Of a DNA stretch of 13,358 nucleotides, positions 331-12,235 are shown one piece after another. Each line of letters begins with the position of its first letter. The stretch's first letter is position 1. Under the pieces are notes generated by a model. It ran no database searches. It worked only from the letters and a program-made list of their open reading frames with translations, and had not been told where the DNA came from. The stretch spans positions 1 through 13,358 of the forward strand of contig JBHLPL010000050.1 of the NCBI GenBank assembly GCA_048939465.1. Reading direction: 5' to 3'. A program made the position numbers and the translations under genes. Origin of the DNA: Promethearchaeota archaeon. GTDB taxonomy: Archaea > Asgardarchaeota > Odinarchaeia > Odinarchaeales > JBHLKK01.

Positions 331-1773
331 ATGTCTATAAAACTGTCTTCAGGTAAGGAAATCCCGATAGATATGTACAAAGCGAGAATGGTCCAGAAAA
401 TCTCCCTAATACCTGTCGAAGAACGACTCAATGCGATAGAAGAAGCAGGCTACAATACATTCTTGCTCAAAACCAGGGATATATTTCTCGACATGCTTAC
501 CGATAGCGGCGTAAATGCTATGAGCGACAATCAATTTGCTGGTATGATCAAAGCTGATGACGCATATGCTGGCAGCATGACCTTCTACGAATTTGCCGAA
601 TCAGTAAAGGAAATATTAGGGTACGAGCACGTAATGAATGTTCATCAGGGGAGAGCGGCTGAGCACCTAATTGCAAAAGTATTCGCCAGTTCGGGCGATG
701 TTATCCCGACAAACTACCACTTCACTACAACCAAAGCACACATTGAACTCACAGGGGCTGAATGCTTGGAAATCTTCACAGATGAGGCTTTAAAGACCGA
801 AAGCACTCATCCGTTTAAAGGTAATATGGACCCACAAAAGCTGAAGGATACGATCGAAAAGTACGGACGGGAAAAAATACCTTTTGTACGGATGGAAGCA
901 ACAACCAATTTACTTGGAGGACAGCCTTTCTCCATGGAAAATCTGAAGGAAATCGCTCAAATCTGCAGAGGGTACGAGATCCCGCTGATACTGGATGGAA
1001 GTCTGATTTGTGAAAATGCTTATTTCATAATGAAGAGACAAAGTGGGTACGAAAATAGGACTGTTTCAGAAATAGTCAAAGAGATGTGCAGCGTTGCCGA
1101 TCTATTCTATATGAGCGGAAGGAAGAACACATGCGTAAGAGGTGGTCTCATTGCAACTAACAATAGGGGACTGTTCGAAAAGATAGAGCCTTGGCTTCCA
1201 GTCTATGAAGGCTTCTTCACGTACGGCGGTATGTCTATGAGAGAAATAGGTGCTATGGAAGTAGGAGTAAGAGAGATGGTTGATCCTGATGTCGCGGGCT
1301 GTGCTATAGAGCAGATAAAATACTTCGTTGAAAAACTTGTTGAAAAGAGAATTCCTGTGGTTACACCGCCCGGCGGACTGGCCTGCCATCTGGATGCAAC
1401 GAAGTTCTTGCCTCATATTCCTCAAACGCAGTACCCTGCGGGAGCTCTAGTTGCTGCGCTCTACATAGCTTCAGGGATAAGGAGTATGGAAAGAGGAACC
1501 ATATCAATGGATAGAGACAAAGAAGGCAAGGAGCTTCTTTCGGATTTGGAGCTTGCCCGAATTGCGCTTCCGAGGAGAGTCTATACAATGTCGCATATCG
1601 AGTACGCAGTCGACAGAATAGAATGGCTGTATAAGCACAGAGAACTGATAAAAGGCCTCGTATTCGTCGAAGAACCTCCAGTACTCAGATTCTTCTTGGG
1701 AAAGCTGAAAGCTCTGGAGAACTGGGCAAGAGACCTAGCTGAAGCATTTAGAAAGGAACTCGGTCCATACTGA
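331..1773 (+). CDS. tpl: PLP-dependent beta-eliminating lyase, tyrosine phenol-lyase/tryptophanase family (TPL-like specificity residues)
   Basis: Motifs DMLTDSG, DAYAGS (catalytic Tyr79), HQGRAAE, NYHFTTT, GNMD, N193, D222, MSGRK (PLP Lys265), YEGFFTYGG, ERG, PRRVYT, LRFF. Family is certain; tpl versus tnaA rests on T132/R388/F454. Confidence 0.9.
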   Translation: MSIKLSSGKEIPIDMYKARMVQKISLIPVEERLNAIEEAGYNTFLLKTRDIFLDMLTDSGVNAMSDNQFAGMIKADDAYAGSMTFYEFAESVKEILGYEHVMNVHQGRAAEHLIAKVFASSGDVIPTNYHFTTTKAHIELTGAECLEIFTDEALKTESTHPFKGNMDPQKLKDTIEKYGREKIPFVRMEATTNLLGGQPFSMENLKEIAQICRGYEIPLILDGSLICENAYFIMKRQSGYENRTVSEIVKEMCSVADLFYMSGRKNTCVRGGLIATNNRGLFEKIEPWLPVYEGFFTYGGMSMREIGAMEVGVREMVDPDVAGCAIEQIKYFVEKLVEKRIPVVTPPGGLACHLDATKFLPHIPQTQYPAGALVAALYIASGIRSMERGTISMDRDKEGKELLSDLELARIALPRRVYTMSHIEYAVDRIEWLYKHRELIKGLVFVEEPPVLRFFLGKLKALENWARDLAEAFRKELGPY

Positions 1774-1905: not shown

Positions 1906-2841
1906 TCAGCTAAGGACACTCATGTCTGCCGTCCAAAACTTGGAAAAGGCAGTTCTTTCACTGTGGTTCCTAAGAAGAAGCCCTATAAAATGTTGGAGCG
2001 CGACAGCCACTTCCGGTTTCTCAGCAAACCTGATCTCAATCTTGTTCTCGATGTAGTTTCCCACAATTCCGTAATCTTTCAATTCCTGCAACTTCTTTTC
2101 GATTCTATACCTGGCATATTTGAGCTGTTTCTTGATCTCTTCTGCTGAGATCTCAATTAGGAACCCATCACCGTTTTTCAGTTCTCCGTACCGTCCTATG
2201 GTCCAGAGGAATTTCAGACCGTCCTTCTTTCTTTTCACTTCTTGCTCTTGTCCGCCACGCGTTTTGCAGTGCAATGTCAACATGCTTTCAAGTTTAGAAT
2301 GCAGCTTCTGCATTGCCTTCTGCAGTTTGTCCGGTTTGATGCTTGTGCCTGAGAATGCTTTAGGGTTCAGGTGAGATGGATAAGGTACGGTCGAAGCACT
2401 GACAGGTTGAGACGTTGCCTCGAATTCGGTTTTGCTAATTCTCTTATGGATTTCATCAAGTCTTGCCTTGTTTAGATAAGGTAATGCGAATCTTTCATAC
2501 TCCTCCTGCGTTCCTTCTTTTTTCGTTCTCTCAGCAATGATATTTGTGGCGTGGACTAACCAGTTTATACGGGGACAGGGGTAGTCAAGACAGTAGCCGC
2601 AGTTATCTACGTTGTTTTTCAAGACACACCTTCTGGTGGGACAACTGCTCCAGAGAGGTACTCTATCCGGAGTGTTGAAGCACCCCTCGCAGTGAGGCTT
2701 ATCATATACCCATCCACGAGTTCGATGGAACTTCTTCCATCCCTTATCGACTGCGTTGCGATCTTTGTCGGATTTGAGATTGGCTTTGTATGCAGGACAG
2801 ATTCCGCAGTTAAATCCACAGAGAGAAATCTCTTCGTTCAT
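1906..2841 (-). CDS. DUF3795-type Cys-rich (Fe-S or Zn binding) protein with long C-terminal extension
   Basis: First ~90 aa carry ten Cys: CGFNCGICP, CEGC, CPTRRC, NCGYCLDYPC, the pattern I recognise as DUF3795. ATG 2841-2839, TGA 1908-1906. Confidence 0.8.
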   Translation of the reverse strand: MNEEISLCGFNCGICPAYKANLKSDKDRNAVDKGWKKFHRTRGWVYDKPHCEGCFNTPDRVPLWSSCPTRRCVLKNNVDNCGYCLDYPCPRINWLVHATNIIAERTKKEGTQEEYERFALPYLNKARLDEIHKRISKTEFEATSQPVSASTVPYPSHLNPKAFSGTSIKPDKLQKAMQKLHSKLESMLTLHCKTRGGQEQEVKRKKDGLKFLWTIGRYGELKNGDGFLIEISAEEIKKQLKYARYRIEKKLQELKDYGIVGNYIENKIEIRFAEKPEVAVALQHFIGLLLRNHSERTAFSKFWTADMSVLS

Positions 2842-2921: not shown

Positions 2922-3509
2922 CTAACCTGCTTTGCCTCCCACAATTCGAACGCCAATTTCAAAAGCTTCACCCATCATCTTCTTATTCTTCTTTACCCCG
3001 CCCAATTCATCATCCTCATGAGCGTAAAGAATCGTTTTTACCAATTCAATGTTTGCCCACTCAAAAAACCCTTTGACAGAGACTAGAGTCGTGTTGAATT
3101 CTTGCTCCTTGCCTGCAACTGCGACAAATACTCCTTTCCTCTTTTTCCTCATTCTTCTTTTGAAGACGTATGTTCCTGATGGATCCTTCACGTAGGGAAC
3201 CAGGCAATTACATCTATCTATCATAAGCTTGGTCTGAGCACTTACGGTGTCGAAGTAGATCGGAGAACCCAAAACAATTACATCGGATGTCTCCAACGCA
3301 GCATAGACCGTTTTCATATCATCTTCATAGAGGCAGTACCCAGGATCGGGGTCTACCCCGCAACTCTGACATGGCTTGATGTTCAAGTCATTAAGATAGA
3401 TCTTCTGCGTTTTTGCTCCTTGGCTGTTTGCTCCCTTCAGCACTTGAGTAACTAGCAAATCAACATTTCCCTTCTTTTTAGGGCTGCCAACGATACCGCC
3501 CACCTTCAT
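2922..3509 (-). CDS. Flavodoxin-family iron-sulfur flavoprotein (Isf / NAD(P)H-dependent FMN reductase-like)
   Basis: N-terminal GSP-K-x2-GN FMN loop, KPCQSC...C, SDVIVLGSPIYF, SAQTKLMIDR. SD GAGGGG upstream of ATG 3509. Confidence 0.9.
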   Translation of the reverse strand: MKVGGIVGSPKKKGNVDLLVTQVLKGANSQGAKTQKIYLNDLNIKPCQSCGVDPDPGYCLYEDDMKTVYAALETSDVIVLGSPIYFDTVSAQTKLMIDRCNCLVPYVKDPSGTYVFKRRMRKKRKGVFVAVAGKEQEFNTTLVSVKGFFEWANIELVKTILYAHEDDELGGVKKNKKMMGEAFEIGVRIVGGKAG

Positions 3510-3646: not shown

Positions 3647-4021
3647 GTGATGAATATGTCTACGGAAGACAAAATGTTAGAAGAACTGAAAGAGATTAGG
3701 AAGTTGCTCACACCTCCGCCACCTTCCCCACCTCCGAAGGGCATTAAGAATGAGTTCTTGGACTTCCTCAGCAAATATAAGGTCTTGGGTTTGGCTGTTG
3801 CCTTCATAATGGGTCTATACCTTGGACGTGTGGTTCAGGCACTCGTGACCGCCTTCATCATGCCAATAATCGAGCTCGTCCTGCCAGGCATCAATTGGGA
3901 AATGATAACGGTCGGTCCTTTCCGAATTGGCCTCTTCGTTGGTGAGTTGATAACCTTTGCTATCGTGGCCATGGTGATCTTCCTCATCGTTAAGCTCACC
4001 CAAAGATGGGGAATTGAGTGA
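3647..4021 (+). CDS. mscL: Large-conductance mechanosensitive channel MscL, archaeal variant; real start probably ATG 3656 or 3650
   Basis: S1 helix EFLDFL, TM1 LAVAFIMG...VVQALVTAFIMPII, TM2 G.FVGELITFAIVAMVIFLIVK, all matching the MscL pattern (EFKEF...LAVGVIIG...IIMP...G.F...I.F.I.A..IF..VK). Confidence 0.92.
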   Translation: MMNMSTEDKMLEELKEIRKLLTPPPPSPPPKGIKNEFLDFLSKYKVLGLAVAFIMGLYLGRVVQALVTAFIMPIIELVLPGINWEMITVGPFRIGLFVGELITFAIVAMVIFLIVKLTQRWGIE

Positions 4022-4115: not shown

Positions 4116-6107
4116 CTATGGCTTGAGATGACGTTTGAAGAAATCAACGATCTTTCCATAGGCTTTTACTTGATTCTTGAACTTGTTGACGTCATGCCCT
4201 TCGTCTTCGAACATCAGATATTCGACTTCGGTGCCCTGTTTTCTGAGCCTGGCCACAACATCGGCCGATTCAGCCTCAATAACGCGAGGATCGTTCTTGC
4301 CCTGTATAACCAGAAGAGGTGCTTTGACTTGCCCGAAATAAGTGGCTGGCGATCGTTCTGTTAGAAACTTACCATCCTTCTCCGGATGGCCTATCGTAAG
4401 GTAGAAGTAAGTCTTCCAAGTCTCTGGTAGCCTCTGCACGAAAGTGATAAGATTGTACGGTCCAAACATCTCGCAGCCAGCCTTCCACAGGTCCGGATAG
4501 CGGGCAACCAGCCAGAGAGTCATGTATCCCCCGTATGATCTGCCCGTAACCGCACGTCTGCTAGAATCGATTCGAGGGTCTTTCTTCAACATCTCAAGTC
4601 CCTCAACTTGATCTCGAGAGTCATCACCTCCCCAGTCATGATCCACCGTTTTCATAAACTTCTGACCGTATCCCGTACTACCTCGAACGTTGGGTACAAA
4701 GACGGCAAAACCGTTCAGCGTTAGATATTGAATCAAAGGCATAGAGAACCATGTGAAATCAGGTCTCTCTTGACTTTGAGGTCCCCCGTGTACGTATAGC
4801 ACTAGAGGATAGGGCGGTTCATATCCCAGAGGTTTCGCTGGAAGGTAAAGGCGGGCTGAAATCCTCAAACCGTCGAAACTTGTAAAACTGGCATCTTCTC
4901 CTGAAGAAAGGAATCTCTCATCTATGCCAAGGATGCGCTCATTTGAAATACGAACATACTTCTGGTTCTTAGAATTGGGATTTATGAGATAGAGCTGGGA
5001 CGGAGAGTTGGCCCTAGTGAAAGCTGTCACATACTCTATCCTTGGTGGAGACTCAGATTCGTCTACAAAGGAGTTGAGGCCTAGTTCGTGTACAAGGGTT
5101 ACACCATCATTGAGGGGTGATTGTCCAACCAGAGTGTGAGAAACGTGGATTCTCGGTGGTACCTCCGAATCATCAAGCCGGCCTTCATACCACCAACTGC
5201 AACCGTCGATGTTATAATGAAGCAAGTAAGTATCCTCGTGAACGTGTTGGATCTCTTCGAGCTCACCCATCCCCTTATGTTTTATGCCATCGATCGGCAC
5301 CGGGTGAATCTCCTTAGGATCCTCTATGTCCAAGATGCCAACTCCTCCAAAATCGTCGTGGACGGTTGTTTTGAAGATTAGTGCATGATCGTCTCTTATG
5401 AAATAGACAGGAACAGAAAGCCCAAGAAGTGGATATTCCTCACCTTCTTTCCTCTGATCTATAGGAGTTCCAAAGAGAAGTTTTCGACGGGATGCACCGT
5501 GTTCCCAGATAAAAACGACCTCATCATTGGCAGTGTACGTATCTGCTAGAATCAACTTCTGGTGATTCCCGTTGTGACCTGCGTGGTAGTTGCCATAAAT
5601 GCTCTTTCCTAGTGATTGAATCTTTGGACCTTTCAGGTCAACCTGAATGGTTTCACGGTCGGGTGTTTTACGATCATCTATGTTAAAATACGCTATGGCG
5701 GCCTTTTCATCAAATCCGATTAGCAGGAGCTGCTGCCCCTCGTACCGTTCGCCAAAAATAGACTCTGGTACACCTCCAGTTTCCGGAACAAAGCAAGGCT
5801 GATAGTTTTCGTTTCCATCTTGATCGATCTGGACCAACACCTTCTTAAGAGTCGGTACGACCTGGAAGCTGTCACCGGCCATTAGATGTGGATTTTGAAG
5901 AGCCACACCTCGAGGCAGCAGCGGCTCAGGTATACTGCCACCTCGATCCATGGCGTATAGGCTGAACATACCGCTCATGTCACTAATGAAATAAACTCGA
6001 TCACCTACTAGCTGAGGAACTAGTAGTTTTCTGGCTGAGAGCAGAGACTCCAAAGGAAATTTCCCTTTTGTGTCCACAAATATCATCTCCCTTTTTCTAT
6101 ATTTCAC
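4116..6107 (-). CDS. S9-family serine peptidase (acylaminoacyl/prolyl oligopeptidase-like, propeller + alpha/beta hydrolase); real start probably GTG 6077 or ATG 6086
   Basis: YVHGGP, PNVRGSTGYG, nucleophile GRSYGG, QGKNDPRV (Asp), EDEGH (His). The track start at 6107 overlaps the upstream stop at 6097-6099; GGGAGATGAT sits 4 nt before GTG 6077, which fits an SD. Confidence 0.95.
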   Translation of the reverse strand: MKYRKREMIFVDTKGKFPLESLLSARKLLVPQLVGDRVYFISDMSGMFSLYAMDRGGSIPEPLLPRGVALQNPHLMAGDSFQVVPTLKKVLVQIDQDGNENYQPCFVPETGGVPESIFGERYEGQQLLLIGFDEKAAIAYFNIDDRKTPDRETIQVDLKGPKIQSLGKSIYGNYHAGHNGNHQKLILADTYTANDEVVFIWEHGASRRKLLFGTPIDQRKEGEEYPLLGLSVPVYFIRDDHALIFKTTVHDDFGGVGILDIEDPKEIHPVPIDGIKHKGMGELEEIQHVHEDTYLLHYNIDGCSWWYEGRLDDSEVPPRIHVSHTLVGQSPLNDGVTLVHELGLNSFVDESESPPRIEYVTAFTRANSPSQLYLINPNSKNQKYVRISNERILGIDERFLSSGEDASFTSFDGLRISARLYLPAKPLGYEPPYPLVLYVHGGPQSQERPDFTWFSMPLIQYLTLNGFAVFVPNVRGSTGYGQKFMKTVDHDWGGDDSRDQVEGLEMLKKDPRIDSSRRAVTGRSYGGYMTLWLVARYPDLWKAGCEMFGPYNLITFVQRLPETWKTYFYLTIGHPEKDGKFLTERSPATYFGQVKAPLLVIQGKNDPRVIEAESADVVARLRKQGTEVEYLMFEDEGHDVNKFKNQVKAYGKIVDFFKRHLKP

Positions 6108-7533
6108 CTTCTTTTAGTTGGTGAGTCGCACGAACAAACATCTGTCCCATACCGCGGGAAGTCTTATAAGTGTAGCGCGAGAACGCATCTCCAAAGACTG
6201 CGTGTCTAATGATTTTTCTTGGCCGCTTATAGAAGCCAAGATAGGCCTTCCATAACAATTCGAGTATTTGATCCCTCGAGAGATGCTCAGTTCTCATAAC
6301 CGGATGCGCAAAATCATAGCTGGACCAGTCGAAGTCTTCAACCAACCCCTTTTCCGCCATTTTCTCATAAAACTCCGTGCCGGGAACAGGGGTAACGAGG
6401 GCAAAAATGGTAACAAGAGGGTCCAACTCTTTGGCAAAATCAAGAATGTTTTGGATGTCCTTTTCATCATGATCCCAGTTTCCCAACATCATGAAGACCC
6501 ATGCGTGAATCTTATTCTTTTTGAGAAGTTTAACTGCTTCCTTGGCCTTTTCAGCGGTCGTTTGCTTGTTATAGAACTCTAACTCTTGATTTGAGTTGGA
6601 CTCAACCCCCAGATTTACCATGAAAACACCGGCTTTCTTCATCTTGGGGATTAAGTCCTTGTCACGTACCAGCAAGTCTGTTCTTGTTCCGTCTATCGCC
6701 ATCCTGATCTTCAATCTGCGCTCAATTATCTCATCAAGAAACTGCTCGGTCCTATCACGATCTACGTTGAATGACAGGTCATTAACCCAAAACGCATTCG
6801 TGGCGTACTCGCTATTCAACTCCTGAATCATATCTACTGCCTTCCCGGCACTCATTTGGCGGAAAGGCTTTTGACAGATTTTGGGAGAGCAGAATCTGCA
6901 GTTGTACGGACATCCCCTGGTCGTGACAACAACTGCAAAACTACCCCATTTAGGAGGTATCACCGGCAGCCTATATTTCTCCATCGGCAGCAAGTGCCAT
7001 GCGGGAAACGGCAAATCATCAAGATCAGGAATTGGAGGCCGATCCTTATTATGAACTATATCCCCGTCTCTCCTAAATGACAGTCCTTCAATTTTCTCTA
7101 GATGAGGGGCTTTCCTACGAAGCTCACCTATGAGTTCATGACATGTGAGCTCGCCATCACCTCTAACTATGAAATCTAGACTCCTGCATTTCTCAAAGGA
7201 TTCATCGGGAGCCAGGGTCAACTGCAGACCTCCGCCCACGGTAAAGGTTTCTGGATTCAAGTCCTTGGCAAGCTCAAGGCACTTAAACGAATCCGGAACG
7301 AAGCAAGTCATTGAGCTTGTGACTCCCACAATCCAGGGATCTCTTCTCTTGATCTCATCTCTTAATCCGGCCCAGTCGATCTTTTCCATATTACAGTCCA
7401 AAATATCAACTTCGATTTTGTTTTTATCAAGAAAGCCGGCCAAGTGGGCAAGTCCCAAAGGCTGTGCAAAGAATCCCCCACCTCCAGCAAAACCCCAGTA
7501 TCTTCTGGGTGGATCGATCAAGAGTAGGTCCAT
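6097..7533 (-). CDS. Cobalamin-binding domain radical SAM protein (class B / BchE-like), substrate unknown
   Basis: N-terminal B12-domain pattern (LLIDPP...PLGLAHLAGFL...VDILD, IVRGDGE), CxxxCxxC as TRGCPYNCRFC, LGVES, TPVPGTEFY. SD GGAGGAGG before ATG 7533. Confidence 0.93.
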   Translation of the reverse strand: MDLLLIDPPRRYWGFAGGGGFFAQPLGLAHLAGFLDKNKIEVDILDCNMEKIDWAGLRDEIKRRDPWIVGVTSSMTCFVPDSFKCLELAKDLNPETFTVGGGLQLTLAPDESFEKCRSLDFIVRGDGELTCHELIGELRRKAPHLEKIEGLSFRRDGDIVHNKDRPPIPDLDDLPFPAWHLLPMEKYRLPVIPPKWGSFAVVVTTRGCPYNCRFCSPKICQKPFRQMSAGKAVDMIQELNSEYATNAFWVNDLSFNVDRDRTEQFLDEIIERRLKIRMAIDGTRTDLLVRDKDLIPKMKKAGVFMVNLGVESNSNQELEFYNKQTTAEKAKEAVKLLKKNKIHAWVFMMLGNWDHDEKDIQNILDFAKELDPLVTIFALVTPVPGTEFYEKMAEKGLVEDFDWSSYDFAHPVMRTEHLSRDQILELLWKAYLGFYKRPRKIIRHAVFGDAFSRYTYKTSRGMGQMFVRATHQLKEGEI

Positions 7534-7718: not shown

Positions 7719-7733
7719 GAAAAGTTTTTTATA
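7719..7733 (+). promoter_or_regulatory. BRE + TATA promoter of the nucleotidyltransferase gene
   Basis: GAAAAG followed by TTTTTTATA, a near-canonical archaeal BRE-TATA; SD GGAGGA at 7788-7793 ahead of ATG 7802. Confidence 0.7.
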
Positions 7734-7801: not shown

Positions 7802-8707
7802 ATGCCAAAGCTGGCAACTTCAGATGATATAATTGACATTGCCACGAAAATCGTGAACGAGGCAGACAAGAAGGGTATTACACTTAGGGTGATGGGTGCT
7901 GTTGCAGTCGCTCTACACCTCAACGATCATTATGGTTTATGGCAAGAATTAGGGCGAAAACTCACAGACATCGATTTCGTGGGATATAATAAAGAACGAA
8001 AAAAGATAGAAAGCATGTTGAAGTCATCCTTTGGTTATGAAATATTGGAATCAAGTCTCACTCCTGCCCTCTACCTGCGGAGGATTATTTGGTGGGATCC
8101 TTCCAAAGATGCCTTAATGATGCCAAGCGGAAAGAAACCACTTAATGGTGATGTTTTTCTCGACAAGCTTCAAATGAACCATACGATCGAATGGAAGGGC
8201 AGGCTACATATCGATAACCCTACTATCCCCTTGGCAGAAGTCGTGTTGCAGAAAACACAGATAGTTGGAGGGGAGAAGCATCTGGGAATGGGCGAAAAGG
8301 ATGTCAAAGACATGATATGTCTTCTCCTGGATCATGACGTGGGGGACAGCGATGATGACAGAATAAATGCAAAAGTAATTGCAGATACTCTATCCAATGA
8401 CTGGGGTTTTTATCACACTGCCACCACAAATCTTAAACTCCTTAAGGAACAGTGGCTTCCCAAGCATAATCTGCCCAAAAAAGACAACGATATCATTCTG
8501 GCAAGAATTGACAAGCTCTTGGACGCTGTTGAAAACAAGAAGAAGTCCTTTAAATGGAAAATGCGTGCAAGAATCGGCACAAAGAAAAAGTGGTTCCAGA
8601 CAGTCGAAGAAGTAGAGAGAATGGAGCAGTACTGTCCCAACTGTGGCGCAGAAATGGAGCTTGGCTCAGAAGTCTGCAAGAACTGCGGGACCACATTGAA
8701 ATCCTAG
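7802..8707 (+). CDS. Uncharacterised pol-beta-superfamily nucleotidyltransferase-like protein with C-terminal zinc ribbon
   Basis: LRVMGAVAV...TDIDF (G32, D56, D58) fits hG[GS/A]x(n)DhDh; third acidic candidate D117; K151 and KDVKD (166-170); C-terminal CPNC-x10-CKNC. Confidence 0.75.
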   Translation: MPKLATSDDIIDIATKIVNEADKKGITLRVMGAVAVALHLNDHYGLWQELGRKLTDIDFVGYNKERKKIESMLKSSFGYEILESSLTPALYLRRIIWWDPSKDALMMPSGKKPLNGDVFLDKLQMNHTIEWKGRLHIDNPTIPLAEVVLQKTQIVGGEKHLGMGEKDVKDMICLLLDHDVGDSDDDRINAKVIADTLSNDWGFYHTATTNLKLLKEQWLPKHNLPKKDNDIILARIDKLLDAVENKKKSFKWKMRARIGTKKKWFQTVEEVERMEQYCPNCGAEMELGSEVCKNCGTTLKS

Positions 8708-8750
8708 GTGAGACATCCAGATAACCTCACTTCGGGTTGACGGAAATAAG

Positions 8751-8817
8751 AGAGCAAAAGAAATGCTAAGAAAATGAATGTTCTCTTTCCTACTCCCTGA
8801 TCAAGATGGTTTTGATC
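8751..8817. terminator. Convergent termination region between the NTase and phosphoesterase genes
   Basis: Hairpin GATCAA-7nt-TTGATC (8799-8817); minus-strand T-rich tract CATTTTCTTAGCATTTCTTTTGCTCT (8751-8776); plus-strand TTCTCTTTCC (8781-8790). Confidence 0.45.
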
Positions 8818-8826
8818 TATTGCCTT

Positions 8827-9792
8827 TTACCCCGAAACGAAGAGAACATCCTCGATTTTCTTGTCTGAAATCACTACGTGAGCTCCCCAAAGCACACCTT
8901 CGCCGTATTCGCTACCTGGATTAACACATAGGGTATTTCCCAGCTTGATTTTCCCCCGAGATTCATGAATGTGGCCGTGCAGCGCCAGAAGTGGTTGATA
9001 TTCTAGAATGGCGTCTCGAACTGCTTGGCTTCCGACACTGATCATTTTGTAGCCCCCTCCTAGCTCTAGCTTCGGTGTAAGAGTCTCATCAAGCTCCGGT
9101 GCAACATCGAGTGAGGTCCCGTACGGAGGAGCATGAAAGTTGAATATTGCATTCTTGAAGTCCTTGACATCACCCATCATCTTCTCGATTATATTCCCTA
9201 GCTCCTCGTCAGTTACATCTCGAGGACAGTTCCATGGTGTCATGTTGCAGTAGCCCGTGCTTACCATCTCATGTATGTCATCAATGTAGACAACTTTTTC
9301 CTCTGGATTTATGATATGATCTGCACTTGAACTTGATAATACATCAGAGACTTCAGGTATGTCGTCATTGCCTCCAGTAACGTACAGTTTTATGCCCGTT
9401 CCTGACAGACGTTCTTCAGCCAGTTTTACCCATCCTTCCAGCGTTTCCAGCACCAAACGGTTGAACAGGTCATTGAATCTTTTCTTGTCTTCATTTAGTC
9501 CTTTTAATTCCTTCTCAGTCGTTCGATAAGGATAGTAACCGGCATCATGGATTCTTCTTTCGACTTTTTGAAGCTCTTCTTCTGTTTTTCCTGAGAGGAT
9601 ATTACCATAAAGTTCAGCCTTGTGAGATCCGTCAGACTGCTTTACAAACGGGACTATCATCTTTCCAGTAATGTCGCCGCCAAGAATCAGAACATCTATT
9701 TTGTAGATCTTCCCCGCATTGATGAATTTCTTAAAGGTCACTTCGGATCCGTGCACATCAGTTGCGTAGAAGAGTTTTGTCTTCTTGCCCAT
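8827..9792 (-). CDS. Calcineurin-like metallophosphoesterase (Icc-related family)
   Basis: All five metal motifs in order: TDVHG (D12/H14), GGD (D40), GGNDD (N142), FHAPP, HGHIHE. SD GAAGGTGGG upstream of ATG. Confidence 0.92.
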   Translation of the reverse strand: MGKKTKLFYATDVHGSEVTFKKFINAGKIYKIDVLILGGDITGKMIVPFVKQSDGSHKAELYGNILSGKTEEELQKVERRIHDAGYYPYRTTEKELKGLNEDKKRFNDLFNRLVLETLEGWVKLAEERLSGTGIKLYVTGGNDDIPEVSDVLSSSSADHIINPEEKVVYIDDIHEMVSTGYCNMTPWNCPRDVTDEELGNIIEKMMGDVKDFKNAIFNFHAPPYGTSLDVAPELDETLTPKLELGGGYKMISVGSQAVRDAILEYQPLLALHGHIHESRGKIKLGNTLCVNPGSEYGEGVLWGAHVVISDKKIEDVLFVSG

Positions 9793-9828
9793 TTTTTACC
9801 CACCTTCTGGGTTTGGTATTTTTCCACC

Positions 9829-9846
9829 TTTAAATAAATCTTTCTC
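9829..9846 (-). promoter_or_regulatory. BRE + TATA promoter of the metallophosphoesterase
   Basis: Minus strand GAGAAAGA-TTTATTTAAA about 37-54 nt upstream of ATG 9792, downstream of the permease terminator. Confidence 0.65.
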
Positions 9847-9869
9847 TTGAAACCTGTGTGAACGGTACT

Positions 9870-9897
9870 GAAAACAAAAAGAAGGGGAAAGTAAAGT
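9870..9897 (-). terminator. Oligo-T terminator after the APC permease
   Basis: Minus strand ACTTTACTTTCCCCTTCTTTTTGTTTTC beginning about 9 nt after TGA 9906. Confidence 0.6.
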
Positions 9898-9905
9898 ATA
9901 CTGCG

Positions 9906-11537
9906 TCAGTCAGGTGGGATTTCTCTGAACCTTATGTCCATGGGAACTCCTTTTGATTTCCTGTAGAAGTACGAGACCCAGAAGAGTACCGTAGGAACAC
10001 CCAGTAGGAACAGTATGGTTGCACTCAGGTAGATAATCTGTAAACCTACAGCTTCTCCTGTAAGCGCTGGGAATAGGATTGAATACACGGAGAATGCGCT
10101 CATTGCAGCTGATATCAATCCAAGCCAAAACGTTATCGGAGCTCCAGCAAACCTCTTCTGCACCACAGCAGGCGCTCGCTCGAATATGTCCTTTCTTCTG
10201 AAATGGAAGACCATGCCTACGATTCCTAAGATAGTCCAGCTTATCATCCAGACCGCAATTGTGTGCGCAATGTATGCTAGCCACGGAGTAAATGTAGCTA
10301 CAGTGTGGATAGAAGTAGCGCATACGCCGCCCGTTAATACTGAGCCCCATGCGCGTCCCTTCGTATCGACGGCCGCTACAAAGTTCGGAAGAATACCATC
10401 AAAGGAGTATGCGAATAGGTTCCGTATCGGGCCGAATCCAAGTCCGAGTATGCCACCCCAGTTGATGATAAACATGCCAACGGGGCCCGCTATCAGAGAC
10501 AGGATCAGATTATCCGTAAGATAGGCGGTCAAGACATAACAGACCGGAGTGTACGGATATGGAGCCCACACCACAGAATCCAGTCCAGCAGCATTAATGT
10601 ATGAAACGGCTTCGATCATGTTGACGCCTATGCCGGTGTAGGTTGCTAGGACGAAAAGCTCCCAATAGACTATGAACATTGCAATTGATCCGAATTGTGC
10701 TAGGAACATCGATTTCCTGATCTGCTTTATCTCCCCTGCAATATTTGAAACGTAAGTTGAACCCAGAGTGCTTAGCTGGTGATAAGTATAACCCGCCATT
10801 ACAGTTGAGGTCATTGAAAACAAGCCAGGCGTCCAGCCGCCACCGGCGGGGGGTGGTGCAGCGGCTGTGGCATAAACATTGGCGGAGTCTATCCCTCCTC
10901 TGCTTAGCAGCCTCGCTTCCATTGCAGCCGGGGTTGTTGTGAAGTTGATAAACATATAGGTAAAGAGCATTATCCACGTGGTAAACATTACGAACCATTG
11001 AGCTCTCATAACCCATTTTGTGCCAAGCCACATGACAAAGAACGCAAAGAAGATTTGGATAAAGCCAAGACCCCAAGCAAGGGGGGTCGTTACGTCCCCG
11101 AGCATCACGCCGGCATTCTGTAGACCAGTGTCTCCATTGAAGAGCCCGATCTGATATACGGTATCTGCGATTCCCCAGCTGGTTCCCCAACCGGCGAGAG
11201 AACCGGACCACATTAGCCCGCCTCCAAAGACCATTCCCCAGGAGGCCAGAAGACCAATGTAGGGATGTATGATTCGGCTTCCGAAGATATACTCACCGCC
11301 GGATCTAGGCATAGCAATCGAAAGCAGTGCATAGAGGGCTACGATAGGATAGAGCATAGCAATCATAGTAGCAGCTATGTATTGGTTGGCACCAGGATAG
11401 AGCACCTGGGACCATATGATGTAGTGGTATGCATACGGAATTGTGGGATTCACGAAAGCGTACATAAGGGCATCGAGTGGACTGACAACTCTTACAAGAC
11501 CTGAAGCTTTTCTTACAAAGACTTCTCTTTCACCCAC
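9906..11537 (-). CDS. APC-superfamily amino acid/polyamine permease (archaeal type)
   Basis: N-terminal FVRKASGLVR..S..DA, MPRSGGEY loop, about 12 hydrophobic segments, C-terminal EIPPD. GTG start with SD GGGGAG. Confidence 0.92.
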   Translation of the reverse strand: MGEREVFVRKASGLVRVVSPLDALMYAFVNPTIPYAYHYIIWSQVLYPGANQYIAATMIAMLYPIVALYALLSIAMPRSGGEYIFGSRIIHPYIGLLASWGMVFGGGLMWSGSLAGWGTSWGIADTVYQIGLFNGDTGLQNAGVMLGDVTTPLAWGLGFIQIFFAFFVMWLGTKWVMRAQWFVMFTTWIMLFTYMFINFTTTPAAMEARLLSRGGIDSANVYATAAAPPPAGGGWTPGLFSMTSTVMAGYTYHQLSTLGSTYVSNIAGEIKQIRKSMFLAQFGSIAMFIVYWELFVLATYTGIGVNMIEAVSYINAAGLDSVVWAPYPYTPVCYVLTAYLTDNLILSLIAGPVGMFIINWGGILGLGFGPIRNLFAYSFDGILPNFVAAVDTKGRAWGSVLTGGVCATSIHTVATFTPWLAYIAHTIAVWMISWTILGIVGMVFHFRRKDIFERAPAVVQKRFAGAPITFWLGLISAAMSAFSVYSILFPALTGEAVGLQIIYLSATILFLLGVPTVLFWVSYFYRKSKGVPMDIRFREIPPD

Positions 11538-11585: not shown

Positions 11586-11600
11586 TTTAAATAGTTTTTG
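11586..11600 (-). promoter_or_regulatory. BRE + TATA promoter of the APC permease
   Basis: Minus strand CAAAAAC-TATTTAAA, about 49 nt upstream of GTG 11537. Confidence 0.6.
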
Positions 11601-11800: not shown

Positions 11801-12235
11801 TCATCTCCTCAGCATCGTTAAAATACCGCCTGCAAGACCTAATGCACCCCCAATGATATTTATGATGCCAAAACCAAGAGTGATAACGGGGATGCAATAG
11901 AAGAACGCCATAAGACCCCCAAACCATGCCCTACGTTCGGAGCGGCCCAGAGTTCCTCCGGCTATTATGAAAAAACCGTTCATGATGCCTAGAGAAAGGT
12001 TCATGTAACCTTGCTGAACAAGCAGCGCCGCGTCCTCAGGGTCGGCAACCTGAGCAGCGACATCGAAAAAGCCGAAAAGGTAGAATATAGCAGCGCCTAT
12101 AACCAGGATGCCCGCCGCTAGTGTTATTGGAAATCCCCATTTGAACTCCTTGTGTTCGATTTCTCTTGTTTCTTTTCCCGTTTGAGTCATCAATTCCTCT
12201 TCATATTTCTTCTTTCTTCCCTTTCGACTGCTCAA
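11801..12235 (-). CDS. Small integral membrane protein, hypothetical (charged N-terminal tail, 3-4 TM helices)
   Basis: TTG start with strong SD AGGAGGT 6 nt upstream; hydrophobic segments; Gly-rich last helix IIGGALGLAGGIL. Confidence 0.8.
   Translation of the reverse strand: MSSRKGRKKKYEEELMTQTGKETREIEHKEFKWGFPITLAAGILVIGAAIFYLFGFFDVAAQVADPEDAALLVQQGYMNLSLGIMNGFFIIAGGTLGRSERRAWFGGLMAFFYCIPVITLGFGIINIIGGALGLAGGILTMLRR

Follow-up and report, generated by a model that had tools for sequence, protein, structure and literature searches.

The three genes and their products

Three neighbouring genes lie between positions 7,802 and 11,537 of the window, which is the whole 13,358-nt stretch of contig JBHLPL010000050.1 (Promethearchaeota archaeon, assembly GCA_048939465.1) that was analysed. 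They encode a predicted nucleotidyltransferase (NT, 7802..8707, + strand, 301 aa), a metallophosphoesterase (MPE, 8827..9792, − strand, 321 aa) and an APC-superfamily permease (9906..11537, − strand, 543 aa, GTG start). NT and MPE converge with a 119-bp gap, and the permease gene lies 113 bp upstream of MPE on the same strand. The initial annotation had described this arrangement as a Pol-beta-type nucleotidyltransferase converging on a complete calcineurin-like phosphoesterase directly behind an APC permease, and its observation is confirmed, with one caveat on the word "complete" given below.

NT belongs to a family without a curated model. No nucleotidyltransferase hit was obtained with either Pfam or NCBIfam, the only Pfam match being a C-terminal zinc ribbon at residues 275–299 (8624..8698, + strand; Zn_Ribbon_1, 28.6 bits, residues 277–299; CxxC...CxxC), which is seen only in the closest relatives. 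Searches returned 569 homologues, most of which are 250–280 aa long and cover only about 88% of the query, and 2838 representatives at E ≤ 1e-3 (1980 at E ≤ 1e-10). The fold nevertheless confirms a Pol-beta nucleotidyltransferase of the ANT(2'')/Lnu/MenT-AbiEii structural branch: the model has a pLDDT of 92, and structural alignment with VIA-align gives Z scores of 11.8 to ANT(2'')-Ia (4xje), 11.8 to MenT1 (8an4), 11.2 to 5uvd and 9.8 to LnuA. G32, D56-x-D58 and D117 are invariant or at least 90% conserved in 64 homologues, and the residue numbers D56 and D58 given initially are correct. The catalytic motif span (7895..8311, + strand) comprises G32-A33, D56-x-D58, D117/D121, K151 and D167-x-x-D170, all in invariant or ≥90% conserved columns of the alignment, and the order of these motifs matches that of the four motifs described for DUF1814 nucleotidyltransferases (PMC7450476).

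MPE is a calcineurin-like metallophosphoesterase of the aq_1956/TT1561 structural branch, with a cap inserted at about residues 45–130. Its Pfam Metallophos score is 23.2 bits against a cut-off of 21.5. The motifs D12-x-H14, G-D40, G-N142-D-D, H220 and H272/H274/H276 are conserved, and all metal ligands are therefore present, although the usual His of the GNH(D/E) motif is Asp here. The model (pLDDT 96) is closest to 2yvt (Z 25.4) and 1uf3 (Z 24.5), followed by Mre11, MPPED2, Rv0805 and GpdQ at Z 17–20.

The permease scores 43 bits with AA_permease_2 (cut-off 27) and belongs to a distinct subfamily nearest to the cationic amino-acid transporters. While the single sequence finds no solved relative, the subfamily profile matches GkApcT (6f34, E 9e-24) and CAT1 (E 4e-23) best, and also hits CAT4, LAT2 and AdiC. 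The subfamily has two signatures. The first is the cytoplasmic N-terminal motif F7-x-R9-K-A-S12-G13-L14-V-R16 just before TM1 (11490..11519, − strand), in which the Ser/Thr preceding Gly-Leu is present in all 58 complete module-linked permeases, while the four other APC genes of this genome have Leu or other residues at that position. The second is the extreme C-terminal tail G-V-P-M-D-I-R-F-R-E-I-P-P-D-COOH (9909..9950, − strand): judged by eye, about 55 of 59 module-linked permeases end in this tail or a near variant, [FYW]-x-E-[IVL]-P-[PVA]-[EDA], while the strict pattern [IVL]PP[ED] matches 31 of 59. In this genome, the tail is carried only by the four subfamily members (labelled C98, C77, C41 and C107).

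The initial annotation also assigned each gene its own BRE/TATA promoter. One TTTAWA box lies upstream of each of the three starts on the right strand, at 74 nt for NT (TTTATA, 7728..7733, +), at 42 nt for MPE (9829..9834, −, in the 113-bp spacer between the permease and MPE genes) and at 54 nt for the permease (11586..11591, −, with further boxes at 77 and 103 nt). These are consensus matches only, the density of such boxes in the window is 0.8 per kb per strand, and the proposed promoters are no more than plausible.

Co-inheritance of the three families

The three families are linked far beyond chance. Out of 80 loci around NT homologues from about ten phyla, 64 carry this MPE family and 62 this permease family within 7 kb, in more than 25 different gene orders, while the next most frequent family is present in only 21. 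NT is the immediate neighbour of MPE in 42 of 79 loci, with a median gap of 49 bp, whereas 12 of 79 loci have NT without either partner nearby. In 151 Asgard genomes, NT is found in 62, MPE in 64 and the APC subfamily in 63, which are almost the same genomes, and the tallies per taxonomic family are almost identical (for example 0/14 and 0/25 in two families for all three). By hand count, 61 genomes hold both NT and MPE, and 67 of 97 MPE matches lie within 10 kb of an NT match. These data confirm the co-occurrence in archaea, Chloroflexota and Actinomycetota claimed in the initial annotation, and contradict the possibility that the three families are no more adjacent than other transporter-enzyme pairs.

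The 2-Mb genome itself holds four or five copies. Beyond the one described here, C77 carries APC, MPE and NT on one strand, 60–250 bp apart, C41 carries APC and NT next to an MttB gene, and C84 carries a diverged NT converging on an MPE at the contig end. The subfamily permease C107, on the other hand, has no adjacent NT or MPE. In addition, at least 13 clusters of about 580-aa proteins are natural NT-MPE fusions. One of these, P0124 of a Planctomycetota metagenome-assembled genome, aligns with NT at residues 13–253 (39% identity) and with MPE at residues 267–573 (41% identity), and a permease carrying both subfamily motifs lies 4 kb from it. We found no paper describing this gene set.

The neighbouring genes are amine-catabolism genes of varied kinds. 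The flanking catabolic genes differ between loci and include MttB with a corrinoid protein, a PYLIS/mtbB element (dimethylamine methyltransferase), arginine-deiminase-like genes with ornithine/putrescine carbamoyltransferase, class-III aminotransferases with AFOR, pyruvoyl arginine decarboxylase with deoxyhypusine synthase and, in Chloroflexota, GntR with two FGGY kinases, GlpA-like and G1P-dehydrogenase-like genes. No PII-like adaptor recurs in the neighbourhoods, and only a 2-TM protein of unknown function does, in 21 of 80 loci.

Predicted function of the module

The initial annotation proposed that the two enzymes have opposing chemistry, with three options: (i) reversible NMPylation of a protein or RNA, GlnD-like but split into two genes, (ii) activation and hydrolysis of an imported compound, or (iii) synthesis and degradation of a nucleotide signal. 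This interpretation is partly supported: gene neighbourhood, phyletic pattern, paralogous copies and natural fusions agree that the genes form a real, co-inherited and so far undescribed module, and both enzymes look active and opposed in chemistry, judging from conserved catalytic residues and confident models, but the choice between the options rests on indirect evidence alone. What the analysis establishes is that a special APC subfamily related to cationic amino-acid transporters travels with its own Pol-beta-fold nucleotidyltransferase and its own metallophosphoesterase. Catalysis, the acceptor, any interaction and the direction of transport are inferred, the last from family and context only.

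In our preferred reading, to which we give a probability of about 0.4, the permease would take up small cationic nitrogen compounds such as methylamines, betaines, polyamines, or arginine and its derivatives, and NT and MPE would form an antagonistic pair switching the permease, or an adaptor bound to it, according to nitrogen or substrate status. NT would transfer an NMP from an NTP onto one constant acceptor with release of PPi, and MPE would hydrolyse that phosphodiester again, which in logic is a GlnD-like writer/eraser split into two genes, and fused in some bacteria. The most specific candidate acceptor is the invariant Ser/Thr (S12 here) of the F-x-R-x-x-[ST]-G-L motif, and the ...E-I-P-P-D/E carboxy-terminus could be the docking peptide.

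A constant target (option i or iii) is indirectly favoured over chemistry on the imported compound by the conservation of the two enzymes, NT having 17 invariant columns and 38% mean column identity and MPE 22 and 48%, compared to 14 and 26% for the permease, across contexts whose catabolic genes differ, namely MttB/corrinoid, dimethylamine methyltransferase, arginine-deiminase/polyamine and glycerol-phosphate genes. Several of the implied substrates, such as methylamines and polyamines, have no hydroxyl group to nucleotidylate. Writer-eraser fusions are moreover typical of regulatory cycles such as GlnD, GlnE and Rel/SpoT. However, the structural neighbours of NT act on small molecules (ANT(2''), LnuA) or on tRNA (MenT), not on proteins, and the conservation of NT and MPE would also fit a constant small-molecule or nucleotide substrate. 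The invariant Ser/Thr could be purely structural, the conserved C-terminal tail holds no conserved hydroxyl residue, and covalent nucleotidylation of a secondary transporter has, to our knowledge, no precedent.

The best surviving alternative, though unlikely, is processing of the substrate, in which the permease would import an amino alcohol or similar amine and NT would act as a kinase substitute, O-nucleotidylating it as ANT(2'') and Lnu do with amino-sugar drugs and thereby trapping or masking it for downstream demethylases or aminotransferases, before MPE removes the nucleotide or phosphate. The closest solved folds do include these small-molecule enzymes, and NT has invariant aromatic and acidic residues that could cage an ammonium group (the D200-W201-G-F-Y motif, W252 and W264). 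The module also sits inside catabolic operons, in Chloroflexota between two FGGY kinases, a HAD phosphatase and GlpA-like genes with 4-bp overlaps, and a single 952-aa protein joins a GCV_T folate domain to this MPE. On the other hand, the contexts imply chemically different substrates, several of them without a hydroxyl group (di- and trimethylamine, polyamines, glycine betaine), yet the conserved positions of NT and MPE do not vary with context. Forming and then hydrolysing the same phosphodiester would also be a futile cycle unless MPE cuts on the other side of the phosphate, which has no precedent for this pairing.

A local nucleotide signal is less likely still. Here NT would make a small signalling nucleotide, for example a dinucleotide or a capped or cyclic species, MPE would degrade it, and the permease would be its effector or its input. 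Synthetase-hydrolase fusions are typical of second-messenger enzymes such as Rel/SpoT and GGDEF-EAL, relatives of MPE include the cyclic-nucleotide phosphodiesterase Rv0805 (Z 18.1) and, by a weak sequence match, an Ap4A-hydrolase-like protein (3qfm), and the high conservation of both enzymes fits a constant nucleotide substrate. However, NT resembles single-transfer enzymes (ANT, Lnu, MenT) much more than cGAS/DncV or OAS-type cyclases (Z about 6), the permease has no nucleotide-binding domain recognisable by Pfam, and four to seven paralogous modules in one genome would cross-talk through a diffusible signal.

Tagging of RNA ends is more doubtful again. In this model NT would add nucleotides to tRNA or RNA 3' ends as MenT toxins do, slowing translation when the amine or amino acid is scarce, and MPE, which has a Mre11-like fold, would trim them off. 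MenT1 ties for the best structural match, the motif order agrees with DUF1814, the conserved C-terminal helix is strongly basic (median charge +5 over residues 246–270) and Mre11 nucleases are the closest characterised folds to MPE (Z 18–20). The model gives no reason, however, for obligate linkage to one permease subfamily, NT is neutral overall (median pI 7.0), and there is no match to the Pfam AbiEii model. A toxin-antitoxin or anti-phage module, with a MenT/AbiEii-like toxin, the phosphoesterase as an enzymatic antitoxin as in the opposing chemistry of DarT/DarG-type pairs, and the permease as an unrelated neighbour, is very improbable despite the fold similarity, since PADLOC gave no hits for NT, the permease or the 2-TM partner and only a short generic match for MPE, the permease subfamily shares the same phyletic pattern and neighbourhood, the surroundings are catabolic operons rather than defence islands, and toxin-antitoxin fusions into one polypeptide would be unusual.

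Comparison with characterised systems

The AmtB-GlnK-GlnD system (ammonium channel, PII protein and uridylyltransferase/uridylyl-removing enzyme) couples, as is inferred for this module, a nitrogen-compound transporter genetically to a Pol-beta-superfamily nucleotidyltransferase and a phosphohydrolase reversing the transfer, with writer and eraser in one polypeptide in GlnD, as in the NT-MPE fusions. The resemblance is one of logic only: the putative removing enzyme here is a calcineurin-like metallophosphoesterase and not an HD domain, the transporter is an APC/LeuT-fold permease and not an Amt channel, and no PII protein recurs in the neighbourhood.

The DUF1814/AbiEii/MenT toxins, for example M. 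tuberculosis MenT1 and MenT3 (PMC7450476, PMC10435456), share with NT the bilobed Pol-beta fold (Z 9.0–9.3 to MenT3 and MenT4, in addition to MenT1) and the order of the four motifs (G..DxD, a second acidic motif, Lys, and D-x-x-D). The position that MenT toxins phosphorylate on themselves is Ala33 in NT, however, no AbiEi or MenA antitoxin gene is present, and the partners are a phosphoesterase and a permease inside catabolic operons. The antibiotic O-nucleotidyltransferases ANT(2'')-Ia and LnuA, which both act on hydroxyl groups of polycationic amino compounds, are the best or near-best structural matches (Z 11.8 over 158 aligned residues at an rmsd of 3.6, and Z 9.8), but sequence identity is 13–16%, and NT carries about 70 extra C-terminal residues with the invariant motifs DWGFY and K248..W252..R255..W264 and has no resistance context.

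For MPE, the closest folds aq_1956 (2yvt) and TT1561 (1uf3), of Pfam Metallophos_3 (to which MPE has a partial match), are structural-genomics proteins of unknown function and add no functional information. They share 16–19% identity with MPE, which differs by its cap insertion of about 85 residues and by GNDD in place of GNH(D/E). The permease shares the LeuT fold of the APC superfamily with the cationic amino-acid transporters (GkApcT, SLC7A1/CAT1) and the antiporters of arginine and agmatine pathways (AdiC, ArcD, AguD), from which its subfamily is distinguished by its own N-terminal [ST]-G-L and C-terminal E-I-P-P-D/E motifs. In some loci it sits where ArcD or AguD sits, beside arginine-deiminase-like and ornithine/putrescine carbamoyltransferase genes.

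Components of the module and their family assignment

The window corresponds to contig C98 of a 1.96-Mb, 91%-complete MAG of a Promethearchaeota (Asgard) archaeon, and holds three ORFs exactly as described in the initial annotation, at 7802-8707 (+), 8827-9792 (-) and 9906-11537 (-), coding for a predicted nucleotidyltransferase (NT), a predicted metallophosphoesterase (MPE) and an APC permease. NT and MPE converge with a 119-bp gap, and the permease lies 113 bp upstream of MPE on the same strand. Each gene has a TTTAWA box 42-74 nt upstream of its start on the correct strand, against a window-wide density of 0.8 per kb per strand. Separate promoters are therefore plausible, although this is no more than a consensus match.

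NT (P0001, 301 aa) has no nucleotidyltransferase hit in Pfam or NCBIfam, and only a C-terminal zinc ribbon was recognised. In an alignment of 64 homologues (A1), G32, D56, D58, R94, F119, H127, K151, Q153, D167, D170, W201, K248, W252, R255 and W264 are invariant, while D117 and D121 are nearly so. The sequence thus carries the features of the Pol-beta nucleotidyltransferase superfamily, namely the hG[GS/A] element (G32-A33), the invariant D56-x-D58 and a third carboxylate (D117, conserved at 90% or more). The AlphaFold model (pLDDT 92) is a Pol-beta-type NTase as well: all the top VIA-align matches (the seven with Z >= 8) and the leading Foldseek matches are NTases, with Z 11.8 to ANT(2'')-Ia (4xje), 11.8 to MenT1 (8an4), 11.2 to 5uvd, 9.8 to LnuA, 9.6 to JHP933 and 9.0-9.3 to MenT3 and MenT4, generic Pol-beta cores following at Z about 7. 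The order of the conserved positions matches the four motifs described for DUF1814 NTases (PMC7450476), of which I and II are of Pol-beta type, III contains a Lys and IV is acidic, since K151 and D167-x-x-D170 are invariant and stand in the right order; this match is one of order and not of superposed residues. Residues 1-270 gave no Pfam hit even at E <= 10, so NT does not match the DUF1814/AbiEii/MenT model (PF08843) and we do not file it as a member of that family. No AbiEi or MenA antitoxin gene lies next to it either, the neighbours being MPE, the permease and catabolic genes. NT has no hit to NTP_transf_5 (PF14907), and its paralogue on contig C52 of the same genome scores 25.0 bits against a cut-off of 31.2.

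MPE (P0002, 321 aa) passes the calcineurin-like metallophosphoesterase model (PF00149) with 23.2 bits against a cut-off of 21.5. It keeps D12-x-H14, G-D40, G-N142-D-D, H220 and H272/H274/H276 (alignment A2), and the dinuclear metal ligands D12, H14, D40, N142, H220, H274 and H276 are invariant or nearly so. The catalytic His of the GNH(D/E) motif is however absent, as the motif is an invariant G141-N142-D143-D144, a substitution found throughout the family. The model of MPE (pLDDT 96) is closest to the uncharacterised aq_1956 (Z 25.4) and TT1561 (Z 24.5), followed by Mre11, MPPED2, Rv0805, Lmo2642 and GpdQ at Z 17-20. The sequence model of the first two, Metallophos_3 (PF14582), is not reached, with 24.1 bits against a cut-off of 28.2 over the C-terminal 60 residues only, although structurally these are still the nearest proteins.

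The permease (P0003, 543 aa) passes AA_permease_2 (PF13520) with 43 bits against a cut-off of 27 over residues 46-509. A profile of its subfamily (A3) finds GkApcT, CAT1, CAT4, LAT2 and AdiC as the nearest solved transporters, which indicates a cationic amino-acid/amine type of APC permease. Single-sequence searches of the PDB gave nothing useful for any of the three proteins: for NT only the zinc ribbon was matched, to L32, for MPE the best match was 3qfm at E 0.045, and for the permease there was no hit.

Linkage of the three families

The association of the three genes is more than chance adjacency, which we considered and rejected on four independent lines of evidence. First, paralogues are present in the same genome. 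Contig C77 carries permease, MPE and NT on one strand, C41 carries permease and NT directly followed by an MttB-family methyltransferase, C84 carries a diverged NT converging on an MPE at the contig end, which is the same layout as in the window, and C52 carries an NT cut by the contig end. One MPE paralogue (C4:1354-2298 (+)) lies without NT or permease, directly after a HerA/DUF87-type ATPase gene.

Second, a scan of species-representative genomes gave 573 NT relatives, of which the 80 best loci were examined; these come from Bathyarchaeia, Thor- and Heimdallarchaeota, Thermoplasmata, Nitrososphaeria, Methanobacteriota, Chloroflexota, Actinomycetota, Thermodesulfobacteriota and Acidobacteriota. 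Clustering of all ORFs within 7 kb shows the MPE family in 64 loci and the permease family in 62, whereas the next most frequent family is present in 21. NT is the direct neighbour of MPE in 42 of 79 loci, with a median gap of 49 bp, all three genes lie within four genes of NT in 53 loci, and more than 25 different orders and orientations occur. The genes stay together while their order changes, as is expected of genes kept together by selection rather than by shared descent. The close relatives found through protein P0005 are simply syntenic and add no independent evidence. Similarity scores across the loci correlated with rho 0.75 for MPE against the permease and -0.03 to 0.6 for NT against the others, but this is confounded by phylogeny and by the choice of loci as the best NT matches, so it is given little weight. 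The permease of the window is 60% identical to permeases of Bathyarchaeia MAGs (loci L022:5247-6869 and L023:5298-6878), which also hold the best NT matches; this is far closer than expected between phyla and suggests that whole modules are transferred horizontally.

Third, in an even sample of 151 genomes of the phylum, NT (E <= 1e-10) is found in 62, MPE (E <= 1e-30) in 64 and the permease subfamily (E <= 1e-40) in 63. The tallies per family are nearly identical; for example, none of the three was found in any of the 14 and 25 genomes of two families. Sixty-one genomes hold both enzymes and, by hand count, 67 of 97 MPE matches have an NT match within 10 kb on the same contig, many of the remainder sitting at contig ends. 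These are given as counts without a P-value, since related genomes are not independent. Several NT matches in one family of Asgard genomes (G012:C1:1911169-1913330, G023:C1:1827073-1827813, G034:C276 and C134) carry in-frame TAG, TAA or TGA codons while the adjacent MPE is intact, and could be decaying copies or assembly errors.

Fourth, a search for longer relatives found at least 13 clusters of proteins of about 580 aa with NT at the N-terminus and MPE at the C-terminus. In one of them, P0124 from a Planctomycetota MAG, NT spans residues 13-253 at 39% identity and MPE spans 267-573 at 41% identity, and a permease of the same subfamily lies 4 kb away. A different fusion is seen in P0125, a protein of 952 aa in which a GCV_T folate-binding domain (residues 35-334) is joined to this MPE family (about residues 640-952) through an unassigned middle third. 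This may be a real link to N-methyl amine demethylation, but it rests on one ENA contig and may be a gene-calling artefact. Complex prediction of NT (1-270) with MPE, using both alignments, returned no answer with a score of 0.00, which is no evidence either way.

The copy in the window is an ordinary member of the module. It differs only in its convergent NT/MPE orientation, which is rare (2 of 42 adjacent pairs), and in the extra zinc ribbon on NT.

Permease subfamily and genomic context

The module-linked permeases share two features that the other APC genes lack. The first is an N-terminal cytoplasmic motif, F-x-R-x-x-[ST]-G-L-x-[RK], just before TM1, whose Ser/Thr is present in all 58 complete sequences. 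The second is an extreme C-terminus, G-[IV]-D-x4-[FYW]-x-E-[IVL]-P-P-[EDA], which about 55 of 59 sequences carry in this form or as a near variant. Four of the eight APC genes in this genome carry both motifs, namely those on C98, C77 and C41, which all lie next to an NT, and the one on C107. The latter lies next to a homologue of a protein of about 230 aa with two central TM helices and no Pfam match, which is a fourth, facultative partner of the module, seen in 21 of 80 loci (L029:8230-8943 (-), L067:6429-7124 (-) and 19 others) and usually lying between the permease and MPE. In this genome it is not in the window but at C107:283-966 (+), and at about 20905-21525 (-) on C31.

The flanking genes are catabolic, nitrogen-related and varied. 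They include an MttB-family methyltransferase plus corrinoid protein (C41 and nine other loci), class-III aminotransferases with aldehyde:ferredoxin oxidoreductase or aldehyde dehydrogenase, a carbon-nitrogen hydrolase, an arginine-deiminase-like gene plus ornithine/putrescine carbamoyltransferase in one co-directional string with the module (locus L075), and pyruvoyl arginine decarboxylase and deoxyhypusine synthase in Thermoplasmata. In Chloroflexota the module is part of a tightly packed operon consisting of cupin, FGGY kinase, GntR/UTRA regulator, permease, MPE, NT, FGGY kinase, HAD phosphatase, GlpA-like dehydrogenase, SdhB/C-like subunits and a G1P-dehydrogenase-like gene. A search with Rfam found no riboswitch or other regulatory RNA upstream of the module in the window or in eight bacterial loci, but only a tRNA and a pyrrolysine insertion element (PYLIS_2, mtbB type, 89 bits) at L099:6811-6910 (+), directly upstream of the permease in a Thermodesulfobacteriota MAG, where a Pyl-containing dimethylamine methyltransferase gene therefore precedes APC-NT-MPE.

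Possible roles of the module

The observation on which the initial annotation was based, three adjacent genes forming a candidate undescribed module, is confirmed. Its interpretation as a pair of enzymes with opposing chemistry beside an importer is supported only in part, in that the module is real and linked while several chemistries remain compatible with the data. The family membership of the proteins, the linkage of the genes, the fusions and the subfamily motifs are what the analysis itself establishes, whereas catalysis by either enzyme, transport by the permease, the acceptor of the nucleotide and any regulatory effect are inferred from sequence, predicted structure and context. From the flanking genes we infer that the permeases carry small cationic nitrogen compounds, probably different ones in different copies. 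Both enzymes look active, and their predicted chemistries oppose each other, NT forming a phosphodiester with release of PPi and MPE hydrolysing phosphoesters, while the fusions are taken to show that they act together.

NT and MPE are much more conserved than the permease, with 38% and 48% mean column identity and 17 and 22 invariant columns, against 26% and 14, and they do not change with the catabolic context. Several of the implied substrates, such as methylamines, polyamines and glycine betaine, offer no hydroxyl group. One constant acceptor is therefore favoured over chemistry on the imported molecule. Writer/eraser pairs that are sometimes fused are the hallmark of regulatory cycles, as in GlnD, GlnE and Rel/SpoT, and our preferred, although tentative, reading (probability about 0.4) is a GlnD-like nucleotidylation cycle that would switch the permease or an adaptor bound to it. 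The invariant serine of [ST]-G-L (S12) is the most specific candidate site, and the E-I-P-P-D/E tail a possible docking peptide. In its most far-reaching form, which we consider unlikely but not excluded, the MenT/ANT-like NTase would O-nucleotidylate the invariant Ser/Thr of the cytoplasmic F-x-R-x-x-[ST]-G-L segment of its cognate permease, the metallophosphoesterase would remove the nucleotide, and the conserved carboxy-terminus would recruit the enzymes. This would be a mode of transporter control with no described precedent, shared by archaea and bacteria.

The strongest alternative, less likely but possible, is O-nucleotidylation of an imported amino alcohol as a trapping or "kinase-substitute" step, which is supported by the likeness to ANT/Lnu, the invariant aromatic and acidic residues of NT and the position in operons. 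A locally acting nucleotide signal is more doubtful, and MenT-like tagging of tRNA ends, with MPE as the trimming nuclease, more doubtful still; MenT-style control by auto-phosphorylation was rejected, since the equivalent position is Ala33. Net charge and pI of the families did not separate the hypotheses. A toxin-antitoxin or defence pair was rejected as very unlikely, since the context is catabolic and the permease shares the phyletic pattern. Comparison with PADLOC-DB gave no hit for NT, the permease or the 2-TM partner and, for MPE, only a 32-bit partial match to PDC-S10 over about 43 residues of the generic GHxH region.

In terms of logic the closest system is AmtB-GlnK-GlnD, but none of its defining parts (PII protein as acceptor, HD-domain removing activity, Amt channel) was found among the recurrent neighbours or in the proteins themselves. 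In terms of fold, NT is nearest to ANT(2'')/Lnu and MenT/AbiEii, and MPE to two proteins of unknown function. Full-text literature searches found no description of the trio, nor of the function of the aq_1956/TT1561 family. The NT family alone has about 2000-2800 representatives at 50% identity and spans Asgard archaea, Bathyarchaeia, Thermoplasmata, Nitrososphaeria, Chloroflexota, Actinomycetota, Planctomycetota and other groups, yet it has no curated model, no name and no paper that we could find. It is almost always tied to one permease subfamily, and sits in the gene clusters by which uncultured sediment and soil microbes use methylamines, betaines, polyamines and arginine derivatives. Knowing what the pair does would annotate thousands of "hypothetical" genes, show how these organisms control or prime amine uptake, and might reveal a new use of nucleotidyl transfer, either on a transporter or on small amines; the natural fusion proteins and the compact bacterial operons make the question directly testable in E. 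coli.

Other genes of the window

A 144-aa glycine-rich small membrane protein with no family match (11801-12235 (-)) lies just upstream of the permease, and is conserved in the closest relatives (locus L019) but not found among the recurrent partners elsewhere. Divergent from NT, a B12-binding radical SAM gene (6097-7533 (-)), whose best but sub-threshold NCBIfam match is BchE-like, overlaps a prolyl-oligopeptidase-family S9 peptidase gene (4116-6107 (-)) by 11 nt, which looks like an operon; an S9 peptidase also lies near the permease in the Planctomycetota fusion locus (L102). The genes at 331-1773 (+), 1906-2841 (-), 2922-3509 (-) and 3647-4021 (+) are a tryptophanase/tyrosine phenol-lyase family gene (603 bits to PRK13238), a DUF3795 protein, an NADPH-dependent FMN reductase and an ORF whose counterpart in the syntenic relatives is called MscL, all of them ordinary genes that are syntenic in related MAGs.
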